Of a stretch of 64,000 nucleotides of DNA, positions 3,790-28,302 are shown in pieces. The translations under genes and the position numbers were made by a program. The notes beneath the pieces are model-generated. The model saw only the letters and a list, made by a program, of their open reading frames with translations. It was not told the DNA's origin and ran no database searches. The first letter of the stretch is position 1. Every line of letters starts with the position of its first letter. The stretch comes from Escherichia coli (GTDB taxonomy: Bacteria; Pseudomonadota; Gammaproteobacteria; Enterobacterales; Enterobacteriaceae). Location of the stretch: assembly GCF_024298765.1 (NCBI RefSeq), contig NZ_CP101210.1, one strand, 5' to 3'.

Positions 3790-5346
3790 ATGACAAGTAT
3801 TCAACAACGAGCAGAACTGCACCGCCAGATATGGCAAATTGCCAATGATGTCAGAGGTTCTGTTGACGGATGGGATTTTAAGCAATACGTTCTGGGCGCG
3901 CTTTTCTACCGTTTTATCAGCGAAAATTTTTCCAGCTATATTGAAGCCGGTGATGACAGTATCTGTTATGCGAAACTGGATGACAGCGTAATTACTGATG
4001 ACATTAAAGACGATGCCATCAAAACTAAAGGCTACTTCATCTACCCCAGTCAGCTTTTCTGCAACGTAGCTGCGAAAGCAAATACCAATGACAGACTGAA
4101 TGCAGATTTAAACAGTATCTTCGTTGCTATCGAAAGTTCTGCTTACGGTTACCCTTCAGAAGCTGACATCAAAGGTTTGTTTGCTGATTTCGATACCACC
4201 AGTAACCGCCTGGGTAACACCGTTAAGGATAAAAATGCCCGCCTGGCTGCGGTTCTGAAAGGGGTTGAAGGGTTAAAACTTGGTGACTTCAACGAACATC
4301 AGATTGACCTGTTCGGCGATGCCTATGAGTTCCTGATTTCTAACTATGCGGCGAATGCTGGTAAGTCAGGCGGCGAGTTTTTTACACCGCAGCACGTCTC
4401 CAGGCTGATTGCACAACTGGCTATGCACGGGCAGACCAGCGTTAACAAAATCTACGACCCGGCAGCAGGTTCCGGTTCGCTGTTGTTGCAGGCTAAAAAA
4501 CAGTTTGATGACCATATCATCGAAGAAGGTTTTTTTGGTCAGGAAATCAACCATACGACCTATAACCTGGCGCGTATGAACATGTTTTTGCACAACATCA
4601 ACTACGACAAGTTTGATATCAAGTTGGGCAATACGCTGACTGAGCCGCACTTCAGAGATGAAAAACCGTTTGATGCCATCGTTTCTAACCCGCCGTATTC
4701 GGTGAAATGGATTGGCAGCGATGACCCGACGCTGATTAACGATGAACGTTTTGCCCCGGCTGGCGTCCTGGCCCCCAAATCCAAAGCTGACTTTGCGTTT
4801 GTACTACATGCGCTGAACTATCTTTCGGCCAAAGGTCGTGCTGCGATTGTCTGCTTCCCGGGTATTTTTTACCGTGGCGGCGCAGAGCAGAAAATCCGTC
4901 AATATCTGGTCGACAATAACTATGTCGAAACCGTGATTTCACTGGCACCGAACCTGTTCTTTGGCACCACCATTGCCGTAAACATTCTGGTGCTGTCTAA
5001 ACATAAAACGGATACCAACGTTCAGTTTATTGACGCCAGCGAACTGTTCAAAAAAGAGACTAACAACAATATCCTGACCGATGCCCATATCGAACAGATT
5101 ATGCAGGTATTTGCCAGCAAGGAAGATGTTGCTCATCTGGCAAAATCTGTCGCGTTCGAAGCCGTTGTCGCGAATGACTATAACCTGTCGGTGAGCAGCT
5201 ATGTGGAAGCGAAAGATAACCGCGAAATTATCAATATTGCTGAACTGAATGCAGAGCTGAAAACCACGGTCAGCAAAATCGACCAGTTGCGTAAAGATAT
5301 TGATGCAATTGTGGCTGAAATTGAAGGCTGCGAGGTGCAGAAATGA
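3790..5346 (+). CDS. hsdM: Type I restriction-modification N6-adenine DNA methyltransferase subunit HsdM (type IC-like)
   Basis: 518 aa; SAM-binding motif DPAAGSGS and catalytic motif SNPPYS; stop overlaps the hsdS start (ATGA). Confidence 0.9.
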
Positions 5347-6569
5347 GCGAGTTGACTTATCTGGAAAAATTGCTGGATGGGGTTAAGGTTGAGTGGCAAA
5401 CACTAGGGAAAGTGCTTAAACGAACTAAAGGCACAAAAATAACCGCTGGGCAGATGAAAGCTCTTCACAAAGATAATGCGCCGCTTAAAATTTTTGCAGG
5501 AGGGAAAACAGTAGCCTTTGTTGACTTTAAAGATATACCAGAGAAAGATATTAATAGAGAGCCATCGATTATTGTTAAATCCAGAGGTATTATCGAATTC
5601 GAGTATTACGATAAACCATTCTCTCACAAAAATGAGATGTGGTCATATCACTCAAATAATGATGCGATAAGCATAAAGTATATTTATTACTTCCTAAAAA
5701 TAAATGAAGGATATTTCCAGAAAATTGGGGGTAAAATGCAAATGCCACAAATTGCAACTCCTGATACAGATAAGTTTGAAGTTCCAATCCCCTGCCCGGA
5801 TAATCCGGAAAAATCCCTTGCCATCCAGTCTGAAATCGTTCGGATTCTGGATAAGTTTACTGCACTTACCGCTGAGCTTACCGCTGAGCTTAATATGCGT
5901 AAAAAACAATACAACTACTATCGCGACCAGTTACTGAGTTTTGAGGATGGTGAGGTTGAGTGGAAGGCGTTAGGGACTATATGCCAAATTGGCGATGGCA
6001 ATCACTCATCAAAGTATCCTAAGGCGAATGAAATGATTGAGCAGGGGATACCCTTCATTCGTGGTACCAATATGGTGAATGGTACAATATGCAATCAAGA
6101 TATGAAGTACATATCTAAAGAAAAACACAATGAACTAAAAAAGGGGCATTTAAAAGCATTTGATGTTTTGATAGCTAATAGGGGAGAGGTTGGGAAGGTA
6201 GCATATGTTCCAGAGGGATATTCTGGATCTAATTTAAACTCCCAGTTAGCATGGCTTAGAGCCAACCCGGAAATTATCATTAATAGATATTTATTTTTCA
6301 TTCTTTGCTCATCAACCATACAGAATAAACTTTCTGGTGAAGGAGGGGCATTACAACAACTTACTATCAAGAACATAAAAAACATTCAGATACCTGTTCC
6401 ATCAATAACCGTTCAGAGCAATATCGTATCTTTTTTGGACAAGTTCGACTCGTTAACCAACTCAATCAGTGAAGGCTTGCCACGTGAAATCGAGTTGCGC
6501 CAGAAACAATACGAGTACTATCGTGATTTACTGTTCAGTTTCCCAAAACCTGATACTGTCAGTAATTAA
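5343..6569 (+). CDS. hsdS: Type I restriction-modification specificity subunit HsdS, type IC family, two target-recognition domains
   Basis: 408 aa; central conserved region [27 protein letters not shown] and C-terminal repeat [15 protein letters not shown]; the TAEL tandem repeat is the type IC (EcoR124I-family) hallmark. Confidence 0.85.
5868..5891 (+). repeat. 2 x 12-bp in-frame direct repeat (accgctgagctt) encoding TAEL-TAEL in the HsdS central spacer region
   Basis: Read directly in the sequence; in type IC HsdS the TAEL copy number sets the spacer length of the recognition site (EcoR124I vs EcoR124II). Confidence 0.85.
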
Positions 6570-11605: not shown

Positions 11606-11638
11606 ACCGCTCTGGCCCACAGCGCCAGAGCGGTTTTC
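11606..11638. terminator. Hairpin terminator between the convergent GntP-fragment and ykgG (stem accgctctggc / gccagagcggt, then TTTT)
   Basis: 11-bp perfect inverted repeat with a 7-nt loop followed by a T-run on the + strand, in the 49-bp gap between convergent stop codons. Confidence 0.5.
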
Positions 11639-14567: not shown

Positions 14568-16265
14568 TCATGCCCAGTTTTTATGTTTGCTGGTTTTACC
14601 AATACCTGGATTCATAGTGTTGGTCGGATCATTTTCCTGATAAAAACGTGCCAAATTTTCCTGCGCTTTATACAGATGGCCGACATTGTGTTCCGCCGGA
14701 TATTGCGCTCCGCGTTGGCGCAGTAATTCCAGCATCTGTTCTTTTAACGCGTGGGCATCTACGCCTTTTTTAACGATATAATCCTGATGGAATACATGGC
14801 ACATAAAATGGCCGTAATAGAGTTTATGCACCAACTGACTGTCAATTTCCGCCGGTAAATGCTCATACCATTCGGTATCATTGCGGCGTAATGCAATATC
14901 CAGCGCGAGAATATCCTCAACCTCGTCAGAATGAACGGCCTGATAACGAATGGCAGCACCCGCGGCGGCAAAACGATGCAGAAACGCCTTACTGCCCTCT
15001 TCCGCGGTACAGGTAAAGAACGCGCCCTCGGCCGATTTAAAATAGTCCGTTAACCATGCCTGGGCTTCGGCCACACCCTCACCGGACATTTTCAACATCA
15101 GATGGTGTTCATAGTTATCGCGCCAGGTCTTCATCCGCGCCGGGAGATGGCTCGGGAACAGATGGCTAAAAGCCTGCATCGCGCGGTCGGTAAAGTGCGG
15201 GCGAAAGATCTTCACCTTCTCAAGTATGGCCTCGGTACGCCCCTTCAGGTTGAAGAAGAACGGCATTTTGTCCGTGCCAAGTTTGTCGATCATCAGGAAG
15301 GTATCTTTGCTGTATTTCTCTGCAATATCATAGATATCGCGGTGCATATACTCCCCAGCAACCGGCAGGTTTGTAAAATTCGCCAGGATGTGGCGGCGAA
15401 TCTCAGTCAGGACATCAGTCTGATTGGTACCGATATAAAAGACCTGCTGGTTCTTCTCGGCTTCAAAGGTATCCAGACGTACGGCAAACACCGCTAACTT
15501 GCCCGCACAGCCAGAGGATTCAAACAGGCGATCCGGGTCAGCGTTGTAACGTGCTGGCGTGTCGGCATTGATGTCCCGCACGCGGCTAACATAGTCGTGA
15601 TCGTGCGCGTGACGCCCGTCATGGTTGACGAGCACGGCTTCAATCGCATTGTTATCCAGCCGGGCAAGGATTTGCTCTGGCGTCTGACCTAGCTCAATGC
15701 CGAGGTGATTGACCAGCTGCAAGCGTCCCTGTTCATCAATACGGGCAAACAGCGACATCTCGGTATAAGCCGGGCCACGCTGGACCAGAGAACCGCCGGA
15801 GTTATTACAGATACCGCCGATAACCGACGCGCCGATGCACGAAGAGCCAATCACCGAATGCGGCTCACGGCCAAACGGCTTCAGCGCCTTTTCCAGCGAA
15901 TACAGCGTGGTGCCCGGATAAGCCAGCACCTGCTTACCCTCATCCAGCACATGCAGACTGTCCAGCCGCAGCGTGCTGATAATGACGATCTCGCGGTCGT
16001 AATCATTACCATTGGGCGTCGAACCCTCAGTCAGGCCAGTGTTCGACGCCTGCATCAGGATTATTTTATCGGCCTCAACGCAGGCGCTAAGGACTTTCCA
16101 GAGTTCAAGCAAAGAGCCGGGGATAACCACCGCCAGAGCATCACCCTGACCCGAGCGAAAACCCTTACGGTAACGCGCAGTTTTTGACGGTTCGGTGAGG
16201 ATATGAGCAGGGCCAACCAATTGGGTAAGAGTTGTCAAAAAGGTCTTATTATCAGTATGTTTCAT
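14568..16265 (-). CDS. dld: FAD-dependent, quinone-linked D-lactate dehydrogenase (Dld family)
   Basis: ORF 14568..16313; preferred start at MKHTDNKTFL (16265) with ggag about 10 nt upstream; FAD-binding signature GSSCIGASVIGGICNNSGGS; ~565 aa, full length for Dld. Confidence 0.7.
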   Translation of the reverse strand: MKHTDNKTFLTTLTQLVGPAHILTEPSKTARYRKGFRSGQGDALAVVIPGSLLELWKVLSACVEADKIILMQASNTGLTEGSTPNGNDYDREIVIISTLRLDSLHVLDEGKQVLAYPGTTLYSLEKALKPFGREPHSVIGSSCIGASVIGGICNNSGGSLVQRGPAYTEMSLFARIDEQGRLQLVNHLGIELGQTPEQILARLDNNAIEAVLVNHDGRHAHDHDYVSRVRDINADTPARYNADPDRLFESSGCAGKLAVFAVRLDTFEAEKNQQVFYIGTNQTDVLTEIRRHILANFTNLPVAGEYMHRDIYDIAEKYSKDTFLMIDKLGTDKMPFFFNLKGRTEAILEKVKIFRPHFTDRAMQAFSHLFPSHLPARMKTWRDNYEHHLMLKMSGEGVAEAQAWLTDYFKSAEGAFFTCTAEEGSKAFLHRFAAAGAAIRYQAVHSDEVEDILALDIALRRNDTEWYEHLPAEIDSQLVHKLYYGHFMCHVFHQDYIVKKGVDAHALKEQMLELLRQRGAQYPAEHNVGHLYKAQENLARFYQENDPTNTMNPGIGKTSKHKNWA

Positions 16266-16700
16266 GGAGGGCGGCTCTCCGCTCCTTATATCAGGGCCAG
16301 TGAAAATGGCCATAAGTTCATTTGTACGACAAAACAGAATATTCCCTCAATCAATATCCACATGCAATACCCCATTTTATTTCTTTCGGCACCGCTCACA
16401 TTTTTTAATGAAATTACCACTACCACATAATTCATACTCCGTTCTTTTACTGGATGCCAAAACGCTTATTTCATTTATTGCAAAGACCATTTCATACCTA
16501 TTAATGATTAACTCTAATGGGTATTATTATATTTAGTGGTTATTCATATTTAATAAAAAAATAACATTATTTATACAATTATTAACCTTTGTAACTTTAT
16601 TTCACTGAAGCGATTCAGTTTGCATTTTTTATTTTATTATTAAGGTAGCCTCCTTCCCCCTAAATATAGTTAAGTCTAAAAAAGTAAATCGGGAATTGTA

Positions 16701-18254
16701 ATGCACGAATATTTAATGTTTGCTCTGGCACTCTCTCCTTTGCTGCTGATGGTATTTTTAATACTGAAATTAAAAATGCCCATCCATTATTCCGTACTGA
16801 TCTCTTTGGTATTCACCGCTGCACTATCGGCAATATTCTGGGAAATGCCCACACAGAATCTGAAAGCCGCGATAGGCTATGGTGCACTGAAGGGACTATG
16901 GCCGATCGTAATTGTTATCCTCGGCGCTATCTTCAGTTATAACGTCATGCAGGCGACCAAAGCGCTGGATATTCTGCGCGATATTCTCGCCAGCATTAGC
17001 GAAGATAAGCGTATTCAGGTGCTGCTGATTTCATGGTGTTTTGGTGGATTTCTTGAAGCCGCTGCGGGCTATGGCACGGCGGTCGCTATTCCGATCGGTA
17101 TTCTCATTGCGCTGGGATTCAACCCGTTGAAGGCGGCGATTGCTTCCCTCGTAGCAAATACCGTTCCGACCGCATTTGGCGCGGTTGGAATCCCGGTTTC
17201 TATTCTGGCAGAGCAGGTTAATCTGCCGGTTTATACCTTAGGCGGAACCATTATTTTGCAGCTCGCGCTGTTTAATATCCTGCTGCCGTTTGTGATTGTC
17301 TGCATTATTGGCGGTGGCCTGAAAGCCATTCGCGGCGTATTTCTGATCACGTTGATTTGCGGCATTTCCACGCTGGTTCCGCAATATTTTGTCGCCATCC
17401 ATCTTGGCGCGGAATTACCCGCCTTTGCCGGTAGCCTGGTCAGCCTGTTTGCCGTGGCGATGGTCAGTCGCCTGCGCAAAGGGAAAACCGATCCCGAGTG
17501 GCGCATTGAGGTCAGCCATACCCGCGAAACCACGCCGCGCTCGGCAAAAGTGTTGTTCCGGGTTGGCTCTATTTATCTGTTTATTTTTGTGTTTATCCTG
17601 CTGTGTTCGCCGCTGTTCCCGACAATAAAAGGCGCGGCATCCCAACTGGCTTCGGTGCTGCATTTCACGTTGGCTGACGGCAAAACGATGGCGCTGAAAG
17701 TTGAATGGGCGACCACACCGGGGATGCTGATCATCTTTGCGACCATTATCGGCGGTTTTATTCAGGGAGCGTCCGCACGTGGGATGCTGGAAGTATTTAT
17801 CAAAACGATTTTCCAGCTTAAAAACTCTATCGTCGCAATTATGGCGATCGTCGCGCTGGCCACGGTGATGGATCTCAGCGGGATTATCTCCACGCTGGCC
17901 CAGTCGATTGTCGATCTGACCGGCAGCTCGTACGTCTTCCTCGCCCCGGTGATTGGCGCGCTGGGCACGTTCGTGACCGGCAGCGATACCAACTCGAACA
18001 TTCTGTTCGGCAAGCTGCAAACCATTGCCGCCAGCAAGTTACATATCGATCCTAACTGGCTGGCGGCGGCCAATACCTCTGGCGCTACGGGGGGGAAAAT
18101 GATTTCGCCGCAAAGCATCGCCATCGCAGTTTCTGCCACCAAAATGGACGGTCAGGCCAACCAGATTATGTCTGGCACCATGAAATACTGCTGCGCCTAC
18201 ATTGTGATCCTCGGCCTGAAAGTCGGTCTGTTTTATTACTGGTTTATGGCGTAA
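16701..18254 (+). CDS. Lactate permease family (LctP) transporter, a paralog distinct from LldP
   Basis: 517 aa multi-pass membrane protein with the LctP signature GSDTNSN; divergently oriented from dld across an AT-rich intergenic region. Confidence 0.8.
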   Translation: MHEYLMFALALSPLLLMVFLILKLKMPIHYSVLISLVFTAALSAIFWEMPTQNLKAAIGYGALKGLWPIVIVILGAIFSYNVMQATKALDILRDILASISEDKRIQVLLISWCFGGFLEAAAGYGTAVAIPIGILIALGFNPLKAAIASLVANTVPTAFGAVGIPVSILAEQVNLPVYTLGGTIILQLALFNILLPFVIVCIIGGGLKAIRGVFLITLICGISTLVPQYFVAIHLGAELPAFAGSLVSLFAVAMVSRLRKGKTDPEWRIEVSHTRETTPRSAKVLFRVGSIYLFIFVFILLCSPLFPTIKGAASQLASVLHFTLADGKTMALKVEWATTPGMLIIFATIIGGFIQGASARGMLEVFIKTIFQLKNSIVAIMAIVALATVMDLSGIISTLAQSIVDLTGSSYVFLAPVIGALGTFVTGSDTNSNILFGKLQTIAASKLHIDPNWLAAANTSGATGGKMISPQSIAIAVSATKMDGQANQIMSGTMKYCCAYIVILGLKVGLFYYWFMA

Positions 18255-18511
18255 ACCATTGTCAACCCCGTCAAATTCGCGGCAATCGAATTTGACGACA
18301 TAGTGACCAAAAAGGTTTACACCGCCCCGGGAACGGAACGAGGCAACAGACTTTACGATTTGTCGGCGCTGACTAAAATAGCGCCGATGTTTCAAATCGA
18401 GGATTGTTGTTATGTTGTTCTGGAAAAAGATGGTGAAGAAGTTCGACGCCTTTTCCGGTGATGCTGCCAACTTACTGATTTAGTGTATGATGGTGTTTTT
18501 GAGGTGCTCCA

Positions 18512-18787
18512 GTGGCTTCTGTTTCTATCAGCTGTCCCTCCTGTTCAGCTACTGACGGGGTGGTGCGTAACGGCAAAAGCACCGCCGGACATCAGCGCTA
18601 TCTCTGCTCTCACTGCCGTAAAACATGGCAACTGCAGTTCACTTACACCGCTTCTCAACCCGGTACGCACCAGAAAATCATTGATATGGCCATGAATGGC
18701 GTTGGATGCCGGGCAACCGCCCGCATTATGGGCGTTGGCCTCAACACGATTTTACGTCACTTAAAAAACTCAGGCCGCAGTCGGTAA
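18512..18787 (+). CDS. insA: IS1 InsA (DNA-binding protein / transposition inhibitor)
   Basis: 91 aa with zinc-finger CPSC...CSHC; classic IS1 InsA. Confidence 0.9.
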
Positions 18788-19209
18788 CCTCGCGCATACA
18801 GCCGGGCAGTGACGTCATCGTCTGCGCGGAAATGGACGAACAGTGGGGCTATGTCGGGGCTAAATCGCGCCAGCGCTGGCTGTTTTACGCGTATGACAGG
18901 CTCCGGAAGACGGTTGTTGCGCACGTATTCGGTGAACGCACTATGGCGACGCTGGGGCGTCTTATGAGCCTGCTGTCACCCTTTGACGTGGTGATATGGA
19001 TGACGGATGGCTGGCCGCTGTATGAATCCCGCCTGAAGGGAAAGCTGCACGTAATCAGCAAGCGATATACGCAGCGAATTGAGCGGCATAACCTGAATCT
19101 GAGGCAGCACCTGGCACGGCTGGGACGGAAGTCGCTGTCGTTCTCAAAATCGGTGGAGCTGCATGACAAAGTCATCGGGCATTATCTGAACATAAAACAC
19201 TATCAATAA
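18706..19209 (+). CDS. insB: IS1 InsB (transposase catalytic part, expressed as InsAB' by -1 frameshift)
   Basis: 167-aa ORF overlapping the insA 3' end in the -1 frame. Confidence 0.85.
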
Positions 19210-19688
19210 GTTGGAGTCATTACCAATGGTGGTAACCGTATAGTCCCAAATAAAGATAAAAATGCTTCATTCTTACTCACCATTCCATTTGCTAAGTCTG
19301 TTATTGATGAAATATTGAGTAAAGAAAATCTGTCATGGTGCTCGAAAAATACTTTGCCAATATTGCATGCTTTTAGTATTAGAGCTTTAACCTCCTAATT
19401 GCTGAAGTAATGATACAAGCTACAGTATTGGTGACGAATCTATAGACAAGGAGATAAAAACCAAATATCAGAATTATTTTTGATAGTGCTGGTAAAGAAG
19501 CGGTGTTTGATATCAGCATGTTTATCGGAAAAAAGCTTACCTGGAGCTTTGAAAAATTGCAAAGCAGGGCCTGACAATGAAGGCCCTAATACTGTACTGA
19601 ATGTTAACTCAGTACCAAATTACAAGGAAAAGTATTTTTTCTGGTAAGATTCTGTATACATAATAAATCACCTTATAGTTACAATAGG

Positions 19689-20170
19689 TCAAAAACCGCT
19701 GTAGCCAAAGTTACGCTGGCCTGATGCTTTAGTGTCGAGCTTCGTCAAATAATCCAGACGTACCAATAAGCGCTGGTACTGCTCTGGGAAATCAGGCTCG
19801 TTAATATCCAGGATGTAACGTCCATTAGCAGGGAAATGAACTAATCCCTGGTGATCTTCCAGTTCCAACCCTAAGGCACTGTACCAGGCTCCGGTAATTA
19901 ACCCTCTCAGTGTGTCAGAGCGCTCATAGTTTCCCAGGTGGTAATAGGCGTCTTTGTTAAAAAAAGGCAGACGTGATAATGACATTTAAAGGACTGCGTA
20001 TATTCTTTCGCCCAGATAATACAAACCGCCGTTGCGTAGGTGCGTTTGCCTTGTTGTTTTTTACTGTGTTGATCTGCATTAATTTTCGCATTCAGCGAGT
20101 TACGGAAACGAGATATCTCTCCGGGGATCAGGTTAGGGAAACAGGTAATGATATCCCCGTTGTCAATCAC
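19689..20170 (-). pseudogene. Hypothetical gene, apparently frameshifted (two overlapping minus-strand ORFs 20170->19907 and 19985->19689)
   Basis: Two same-strand ORFs overlap in different frames between IS1 copy 1 and IS2; no family recognised. Could be unrelated spurious ORFs. Confidence 0.25.
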
Positions 20171-20260
20171 AGGAGGGTAATGGAGATCCCCCCGTATTGC
20201 TGTTATTCTGGAAGTGTTTTTAATATTCGTATTGATAGTTCTCAGAGATTGGATTTGCCC

Positions 20261-21166
20261 CTATATTTCCAGACACCTGTTATCACTTAACCCATTACTG
20301 GCCCGCTGCCGTAGATATTCCCGTGGCGAGCGATAACCCAGTGCACTATGCGGGTGCCATTCGTTATAATGCTCGAACGCCTCTGCAAGGTTCTTTGCTG
20401 CCGTTAACCCGTCTGGTTTAGGCATGATACTGATGTAGTCACGCTTTATCGTTTTCACGAAGCTCTCTGCTATGCCGTTACTCTCCGGACTCTGCACCGC
20501 CGTGTTCTTCGGTTCAAGCCCTAATATCCGGGCAAACTGCCGTGTTTCATTAGCCCGGTAGCATGAACCATTATCCGTCAGCCACTCTACTGGAGACGCC
20601 GGAAGCTCGTTGCCGAAGCGGCGTTCCACCGCTCCTGGCATGACGTCCTGTACTGTTTCACTGTCGAAGCCGCCCGTAGTGACTGCCCAGTGCAGTGCCT
20701 CACGGTCACAGCAGTCCAGCGCGAACGTGACTCGCAGTTTTTCTCCGTTATCACAGCGGAACTCGAACCCGTCAGAGCACCATCGTTGATTGCTTTCTTT
20801 CACGGCCACTTTGCCAGTATGTGCCCGTTTCGATGGCGGTACAGCGGTTTTTCGCTCAAGCAACAGCGCATTCTGGCGCATGATCCGGTAAACACGTTTG
20901 GCATTGATCGCAGGCATACCATCAAGTTCGGCCTGTCTGCGAAGCAGCGCCCATACCCGACGATAACCATACGTGGGCAGCTCTCCGATAACATGGTGTA
21001 TACGGAGAAGCACATCCGTATCATCTGAGTGACGGCTGCGGCGACCATCTTTCCAGTCATCGGTTCGTCTGAGAATTACGTGCAACTGCGCACGCGACAC
21101 CCGGAGACAACGGCTGACTAAGCTTACTCCCCATCCCCGGGCAATAAGGGCGCGTGCGCTATCCAC
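20261..21166 (-). CDS. insD: IS2 transposase OrfB (InsD)
   Basis: 301 aa with DDE-transposase C-terminus ...[18 protein letters not shown]. Confidence 0.9.
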
Positions 21167-21489
21167 TTTTTTGCACGCCCGTATTCAACGGCTTCTTTAA
21201 GGAGTTCATTTTCCATCGTTTTTTTGCCGAGCAGGCGCTGGAGTTCTTTAATCTGCTTTATGGCAGCAGCAAGTTCAGAGGCAGGAACGATCTGTTCTCC
21301 TGCGGCCACAGCAGTAAGACTTCCCTCCTGGTATTGCTTGCGCCAGAGAAATAACTGGCTGGCTGCCACACCGTGTTGCCGGGCAACAAGGGAGACCGTC
21401 ATTCCCGGTTCAAAGCTCTGCTGAACAATAGCGATCTTTTCCTGTGTAGTACGCCGTCTGCGTTTCTCCGGTCCTAAGACATCAATCAT
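21124..21489 (-). CDS. insC: IS2 OrfA (InsC), HTH protein
   Basis: Start at [26 protein letters not shown] within ORF 21124..21534. Confidence 0.85.
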
Positions 21490-21533
21490 CTGCTCTCCAA
21501 TGACTAGTCTAAAAACTAGTATTAAGACTATCA

Positions 21534-23450
<1,917 letters not shown>

Positions 23451-27964: not shown

Positions 27965-28302
27965 CCAGTCCTCACTTTGTGCATTTTTTAAACGAAAAAA
28001 GGGTGTCTAATACGGTGAAATCATAGTATTACCAAAGTAATAAATAAAAATTGTTTTAAATCAGTAGGTTAGATTAGATTTGTAATGCCTGGGTAATACC
28101 GCAGCATGGCTAAATTTGGTTTTTTTTCTTTTAAATCAGTTGGATAGCGTGATTTATCACGCTGCGTTAGGTGTATAGCAGGTTAAGGGATAAAAAATCA
28201 TCTTTTTTTGGTAGGGCGATCTCCGTAGGTTAAGGGTCATTTGGCTAAAAAGCGTCCTATTCTTTGATGGTCATGCTTGCATGACCATCTGAGCAACCAA
28301 AA

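Follow-up and report, generated by a model that had tools for sequence, protein, structure and literature searches.

The stretch of DNA analysed here, the window in the following, comprises 64,000 nt of the Escherichia coli contig NZ_CP101210.1. It contains a lactate-utilisation cluster consisting of lutCBA, dld (14568-16313, minus strand), and a gene for a permease of the LctP family (16701-18254, plus strand). According to the ORF call, the permease gene is intact, specifies 517 aa, and ends with the stop codon TAA at 18252-18254. Pfam family PF02652 was found on orthologues of this permease, and the corresponding E. coli RefSeq record lists the protein as 'L-lactate permease' (WP_000545262.1). 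The region of interest is the stretch of 204 bp from the permease stop to a copy of IS1. The IS1 element occupies 768 bp (18457-19224, plus strand) with insA at 18512-18787 (91 aa) and insB' at 18706-19209 (167 aa), and both terminal inverted repeats could be read in the sequence (left, GGTGATGCTGCC; right, GGTAATGACTCC). Its length of about 768 bp, the inverted repeats, and insA with the overlapping insB' frame are the characteristics by which IS1 is recognized, and the corresponding RefSeq record labels it 'IS1-like element IS1A family transposase, programmed frameshift'. The 204-bp stretch was detected in 108 out of 5426 complete E. coli genomes, and in about 65 complete E. coli genomes the region is intact. 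The entire arrangement of the window is also matched by E. coli 2020CK-00188.

The lactate cluster is native to Citrobacter. The gene order in this genus is gntP, lutCBA, and then lctP on the opposite strand, and 3' of lctP a convergent operon is located, which codes for a pdxK-like kinase, a tyrosine permease, and a tyrosine phenol-lyase-like enzyme. At native Citrobacter loci (L006-L008, 3861-4443), no dld gene is present between lutA and lctP, but an intergenic region of about 580 bp, whereas the mobile module of E. coli and Klebsiella carries dld at this position (14568-16313, minus strand, in the window). The mobilised module therefore appears to be a derived, expanded form. The dld-bearing version of the cluster is found on many plasmids and in IS-bounded islands. 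On plasmid pZ1323HEC0108-3 (L002, 7421-10877), the lactate module adjoins a DUF305 gene, a plasmid-borne rpoH, and an encapsulin shell gene, a cargo region of the heat/stress-resistance type. In E. coli 504239 (L001, 4447-6000), which harbors the IS1 junction of the window described below, the lactate permease gene is a pseudogene with an internal stop, while it is intact in the window; the module is thus decaying in some lineages.

Downstream of the permease gene, a perfect hairpin (CGTCAAATTCG/CGAATTTGACG) is located at 18269-18297 (plus strand). It begins 15 nt past the permease stop, consists of an 11-bp stem and a 7-nt loop (CGGCAAT), and is present in the minimum-free-energy fold. A perfect hairpin past the LctP stop had already been described in an earlier note on this DNA. 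The structure itself was confirmed, but its coordinates had been placed about 6 nt too far to the right, and the stem and loop had been given as 10 bp and 6 nt. In total, the window contains four perfect hairpins with a stem length of 10 bp or more, compared to 0.23 expected from composition-preserving shuffles, so that their number exceeds chance. The other three, with stems of 10-11 bp, map to 2511-2539 (AACGATCGATA...), 11606-11634 (ACCGCTCTGGC...), and 28266-28289 (GATGGTCATGC...).

The hairpin at 18269-18297 has an AT-rich stem with five G-C pairs among its 11, ACATAGTGACC without a T-run comes next, and the terminator scan did not call the structure. In most Citrobacter relatives, the sequence CGTATTTGAC introduces an uncompensated T-T mismatch, others show two mismatches, and four loci (L003, L015, L016, and L017) do not contain the repeat. 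When RNAalifold was applied to the alignment of the relatives, the helix was not recovered; instead, the invariant TTGTCAA (18259-18265) was paired with TTTGAC (18291-18296). A function of the hairpin as rho-independent terminator of lctP was considered and rejected, because a T-run is missing and the structure is not conserved. As the stem is not kept in the relatives either, this hairpin is probably of minor or lineage-specific importance, and it probably represents the perfect form, specific to this lineage, of a repeat that is otherwise imperfect. Within the variable spacer, short conserved motifs were detected between 18259 and 18321 (plus strand), namely TTGTCAACCCC (18259-18269), TTTGAC (18291-18296), and AAAAGGTTTACA (18310-18321). 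They are invariant or nearly so, are found about 65 to 125 bp upstream of the predicted start of the small gene introduced below, and could represent regulator sites or a long-range RNA helix. CRP-like and GntR-like operators were considered for these motifs by eye and dropped, since spacing or symmetry did not fit. In Citrobacter sp. MGH106 (L015, 4552-4600), the permease stop is TGA, 34 extra nucleotides precede the TTGTCAACCCC motif, and an unrelated GC-rich repeat (CTGGCGG...CCGCCCAG) is located at the position of the 18269-18297 hairpin.

Upstream of IS1, a small ORF starts with ATG at 18412 (plus strand), preceded at a distance of 8 nt by the invariant Shine-Dalgarno sequence GAGGA (18399-18403). 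Only the first 15 native codons, MLFWKKMVKKFDAFS (18412-18456), are present in the window, because the left end of IS1 at 18457 directly follows TCC, codon 15. Intact relatives read on from this codon as TCC GCG TTG ATT CCA CCA CGC TAC TTC CGC GTG TAA, resulting in a 25-codon ORF specifying MLFWKKMVKKFDAFSALIPPRYFRV*. The earlier note had stated that an ORF with the ribosome binding site gagga runs straight into the IS1 end and that IS1 destroyed a gene at this site. Both statements agree with the positions given here and with the 10 further codons in relatives. A homology search, which had been suggested there as a check, yielded intact 25-codon homologues in Citrobacter, in E. coli islands, and on plasmids of Klebsiella and E. 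coli. Since the ORF continues in these relatives for 10 codons to TAA, IS1 truncated a conserved ORF. In the window, the frame extends for 8 codons into IS1 to a TAG codon, creating a chimeric ORF of 23 codons (18412-18483, plus strand) composed of the 15 native codons and GDAANLLI* from the IS1 left end (MLFWKKMVKKFDAFSGDAANLLI*). Because the DNA past codon 15 is replaced by unrelated DNA, codons 16 to 25 (ALIPPRYFRV) are lost, and consequently the remnant can encode only the 23-aa chimera.

The same junction of ORF and IS1 was found in 44 of the 5426 complete E. coli genomes. A target duplication of 8-9 bp is absent around IS1 (left flank, GCCTTTTCC; right flank, AATGGTGGT), and a search across the whole window for the missing 3' part of the small ORF gave no result. 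Therefore, IS1 seems to mark the edge of a deletion or rearrangement rather than a simple insertion. The left junction is shared by a second E. coli lineage, in which other DNA follows beyond IS1. These features indicate that IS1-mediated deletion or recombination after the insertion shaped the present structure. Compared to known genes inactivated by IS1, the locus is typical in that the truncated ORF borders directly on a complete 768-bp element, which has standard ends and insA/insB', but it differs by the lack of a 9-bp duplication and by the other DNA right of IS1 in the two E. coli lineages.

The 3' flank of the lactate module is a recurrent IS junction. In E. coli 504239 (L001, 6203-8275), an IS3-family element interrupts the IS1 copy. 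On IncY-type and other E. coli plasmids (L002, 6535-7300; L005, about 5200-5650), a second, independent IS1 in opposite orientation is found about 50 bp past the stop of the small ORF within a REP element. About 175 bp downstream, the module is bordered by ISEc52 or by IS3-family elements in E. coli AR_0137 and on Klebsiella plasmids. To the right of IS1 in the window (19225-22500; L090), AT-rich foreign DNA with a frameshifted gene of the inovirus Gp2 family and an IS3-family element with programmed frameshift (about 20261-21534, minus strand) are present. An N-6 DNA methylase fragment, two DUF262 genes, another IS1, and stbA were also detected, which characterizes this region as an island of mosaic structure containing remnants of plasmids and phages.

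The distribution of the small ORF was determined in a permease-anchored scan of species-representative genomes, which comprised 80 lctP loci. In all 12 Citrobacter species recovered, the small ORF follows lctP. For the lctP loci of other genera in this set, a tblastn search with the peptide detected no homologue, and in genera other than Citrobacter lutA is located immediately after lctP. Thus, the small gene is confined to one genus-derived module, which, like the lack of any family match reported below, counts against its being a genuine gene. Metagenomes were scanned with a 24-nt promoter/hairpin pattern, chosen independently of the ORF, and the small ORF was present on 39 further contigs. 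By tblastn, it was also detected on 145 plasmids, 114 of which are from Klebsiella. In all 51 loci with enough flanking sequence the 25-codon ORF is unbroken; the peptide is the same in 42 of them, and one-residue differences were observed in the remainder. Among 16 aligned loci, the spacer between Shine-Dalgarno sequence and ATG varies at positions -8, -7, and -2, while GAGGA and ATG are fixed. Start codon, Shine-Dalgarno sequence, and length of the ORF are therefore conserved between species, as expected for a small protein-coding gene. In current annotations, the small gene is either skipped or a 68-aa ORF is called in another frame. Scans of the 25-aa and the 68-aa peptides against Pfam and NCBIfam (E<=10) returned no match, and a literature search for the peptide string retrieved no paper containing it. 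Starting from Citrobacter, the lactate module appears to have reached more than 140 sequenced plasmids as well as islands in E. coli, and the small-protein candidate is part of this module.

Conservation, calculated as the share of variable alignment columns in 16 loci, is sharply bounded. Of the third codon positions of lctP, 71% are variable, and the value for the region from the lctP stop to the -35-like hexamer is 72%. It drops to 15% between -35 and ATG and to 11.5% within the small ORF, and rises to 90% in the 60 columns past TAA, where REP elements and a terminator-like hairpin interchange between species. In one Citrobacter species, the terminator-like hairpin is located immediately 3' of the stop of the small ORF. 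Thus, the conserved block consists of 138 nt extending from the -35-like TTTACG to the stop codon of the small ORF. It could be argued that this block has no function at all and was kept by recent horizontal spread or recombination, the ORF, the promoter-like site, and the hairpins having arisen by chance. The module is indeed highly mobile, with copies on 145 plasmids and in islands whose borders are IS1 and IS3-family elements, and for this reason many copies are near-identical. However, the block is also kept in the chromosomes of 12 Citrobacter species despite a divergence of lctP of up to 15% (38% at third positions), and the DNA directly flanking it is diverged or replaced in Citrobacter species. 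Moreover, a sweep would not be expected to end at a -35 hexamer on one side and at a stop codon on the other. A block without function is therefore considered very unlikely.

A further question concerned the reading frame. As mentioned above, annotation by RefSeq/PGAP has placed another ORF at this site, a 68-aa 'hypothetical protein' (WP_023157188.1). A truncated copy of it is present in the window at 18303-18461 (plus strand) with GTG at 18303 as start, and further calls are located at 6961-7167 in L004 and at 6892-7098 in L130. The gene truncated by IS1 could accordingly be the one for this protein, which is annotated in RefSeq records of E. coli, Klebsiella, and Citrobacter, belongs to a protein cluster of 40 members, and occupies the longest open frame spanning the conserved block. 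To compare the frames, 12 distinct variants of the ORF across 18 haplotypes, a small sample, were evaluated. In the 25-codon frame, six of the 12 variants are synonymous compared to 19% expected (P=0.016), while the corresponding numbers for the other two frames are zero and three. Five variants, GCC>GCT, TTT>TTC, TCC>TCT, ATT>ATC, and CGC>CGG, are present in at least two haplotypes; all of them are synonymous in the 25-codon frame and nonsynonymous in both others. The six variants that are nonsynonymous in the 25-codon frame were each found in a single haplotype. This substitution pattern fits the 25-codon frame and, as far as can be judged from these variants, no other.

In the 68-aa frame, nine of the 12 variants are nonsynonymous, and a C>T exchange at ORF nucleotide 33, which was detected in two contigs, generates a stop codon. 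In three loci (L003, L016, and L017), a 1-nt indel upstream shifts the N-terminal part, and the internal ATG of this frame is changed to ATA. At its C-terminus, the 68-aa ORF enters species-specific REP elements or terminators, and the length of the open frame consequently ranges from 63 to 140 codons. The 68-aa protein is invariant only where it overlaps the conserved block, and it is one of the two peptides without a Pfam or NCBIfam match. Based on the substitution pattern, the indel, the nonsense change, and the non-homologous C-terminus in the PGAP frame, the constraint acts on the 25-codon frame. The 68-aa call probably represents an artefact in the wrong frame, and it is hardly conceivable that WP_023157188.1 is the real product of the gene truncated by IS1.

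Upstream of the small ORF, a sigma-70-like promoter is predicted at 18352-18379 (plus strand), composed of the -35 sequence TTTACG (18352-18357), a 16-nt spacer, and the -10 sequence TAAAAT (18374-18379). The promoter scan called the site in two relatives as well as in the window, and the sole variant of the -10 region, TACAAT in two species, still fits the consensus. Transcription is predicted to start near 18386, yielding a leader of about 25 nt. The promoter overlaps a nearly invariant, GC-rich hairpin at 18361-18389 (plus strand) with the arms TCGGCGCT (18363-18370) and AGCGCCGA (18380-18387). Its 8-bp core includes six G-C pairs and can be extended to 11 bp, the -10 hexamer is mostly within the loop, and the tail is TTTCAAAT. 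The pairs are kept in 15 to 17 of 17 sequences with one-sided changes only; covariation is uninformative here, because the hairpin hardly varies. Due to the adjacent TTTCAAAT, a leaky lctP terminator is conceivable, although the four T residues among eight are below the threshold of five used in the terminator scan. A leaky terminator, an operator, or both are the candidate functions of this structure.

These features raise the possibility that the 138-nt block is a non-coding element, such as a terminator or 3'-UTR structure of lctP, an operator, or a small RNA gene, and that the ORF is incidental. Nucleotide conservation is indeed above the needs of coding. Only five of the 25 third positions of the small ORF are variable compared to 71% in lctP, codons 1 to 10 are without synonymous change, and the 60 nt upstream are nearly invariant. 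Since the third positions vary far less than those of lctP, a constraint at the nucleotide level unrelated to coding exists. The promoter and hairpin signals account for part of the excess conservation, and non-coding constraint alone could explain much of it. The nearly invariant hairpin of 8-11 bp followed by TTTCAAAT is also compatible with a non-coding element, as is the folding of the lctP 3' region, which is far better than that of shuffled sequences (z = -5.4). On the other hand, the 3' boundary of the block coincides exactly with the stop codon of the ORF, and the variation within the block falls on the spacer between Shine-Dalgarno sequence and ATG and on third positions of one frame. 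Folding of the putative transcript from the predicted start was not more stable than that of shuffles (z = -0.37), and covariation supporting the hairpin was not observed in this hardly varying structure. Rfam scans with permissive thresholds, covering the window region and an intact relative, detected no family, only chance-level matches and downstream fragments of the REP-related naRNA4. In a crude duplex search, complementarity to the translation initiation regions of lctP, dld, and lutABC did not exceed that of shuffled controls. Taken together, a purely non-coding block with an incidental ORF is regarded as unlikely.

From these analyses, the 204 bp probably represent the 3' flank of a Citrobacter-type lctP gene with a separate gene for a small protein, which has its own promoter and is cut by IS1 in the window. 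The most likely reading is thus a genuine, unannotated small-protein gene inactivated by IS1. According to this interpretation, the promoter TTTACG-16-TAAAAT (18352-18379) would fire, and a leader of about 25 nt with GAGGA would direct synthesis of the cationic 25-aa peptide MLFWKKMVKKFDAFSALIPPRYFRV. A possible target of the peptide would then be the lactate-utilisation machinery encoded nearby; located as a helix at the membrane surface, it might for example modulate the permease or a dehydrogenase, similar to the action of AzuC on GlpD. The conserved linkage to lctP and the analogy to known small proteins led to this suggestion. With low confidence, this small peptide is therefore proposed to modulate either the lactate permease encoded next to it or a dehydrogenase, and the RNA might have a role in addition.

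Such an additional role would make the 138-nt block a dual-function RNA, with a transcript of about 130-160 nt providing both the 25-aa peptide for the lactate permease or dehydrogenase and a function at the RNA level. This extended version is quite improbable as judged at present, but it would have several implications. Synonymous variation is missing from the leader and from codons 1 to 10, and a role of the RNA would account for this. A dual-function RNA would travel with a mobile lactate module among Citrobacter chromosomes, plasmids of Klebsiella and E. coli, and E. coli islands, and the IS1 allele in 44 E. coli genomes would be a natural knock-out or an altered version of the regulator. 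Some published work links lactate use to the fitness of gut Enterobacteriaceae, and given this link, a small regulator attached to a mobile lactate module would merit attention. Taken by itself, the locus is an ordinary gene disrupted by IS1, and the added value is modest. New are the candidate for an unannotated 25-aa small protein with unusually strong and sharply bounded conservation and the evidence that the 68-aa RefSeq call WP_023157188.1 for the same spot is probably mis-framed. In addition, the natural alleles truncated by IS1 offer ready-made comparisons for the small gene.

The peptide MLFWKKMVKKFDAFSALIPPRYFRV consists of 25 aa and has a net charge of +5. On a helical wheel, F3, W4, M7, V8, F11, F14, and I18 cluster opposite to K5, K6, K9, K10, and D12, and residues 3-18 precede a kink at PP and a tail of aromatic and basic character. 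A hydrophobic moment of 0.37 was calculated, a value reached by 11-14% of shuffled sequences, compared to 0.55 for AzuC (0.7% of shuffles). The idea of an amphipathic helix is thus a weak one for this peptide. A number of small proteins are known to tune transporters or enzymes, such as SgrT acting on PtsG, MgtS on MgtA, AcrZ on AcrB, KdpF on KdpABC, and MntS. The candidate described here shares with them a size below 50 aa, the linkage to a transport or metabolic system, and the fact that it was missed by standard annotation. Most of these proteins are single transmembrane helices, whereas the peptide predicted here has no hydrophobic stretch long enough to span the membrane.

A resemblance was also noted to AzuC of E. 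coli, a membrane-associated small protein of 28 aa, which is encoded on the 164-nt dual-function RNA AzuCR and activates GlpD, a membrane-associated respiratory dehydrogenase (PMC8915982). The AzuC sequence used for the comparison was verified from K-12. Homology was rejected, since BLASTP gave no alignment at E<=100 and the DNA alignment was at background level; the resemblance is analogy and not membership. The candidate peptide differs from AzuC by a weaker amphipathic signal and another genomic location. The likeness concerns size (25 versus 28 aa), an N-terminal segment that is basic and has a hydrophobic face, a PP pair located about six residues before the C-terminus, and FR close to the end. 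In addition, both seem to be short, stand-alone transcription units beside genes of carbon metabolism. AzuC acts on the dehydrogenase GlpD, and the ORF described here travels with genes for a lactate dehydrogenase and a lactate permease. Finally, the conservation beyond coding in the 138-nt block recalls a coding region with an overlapping region for base pairing.
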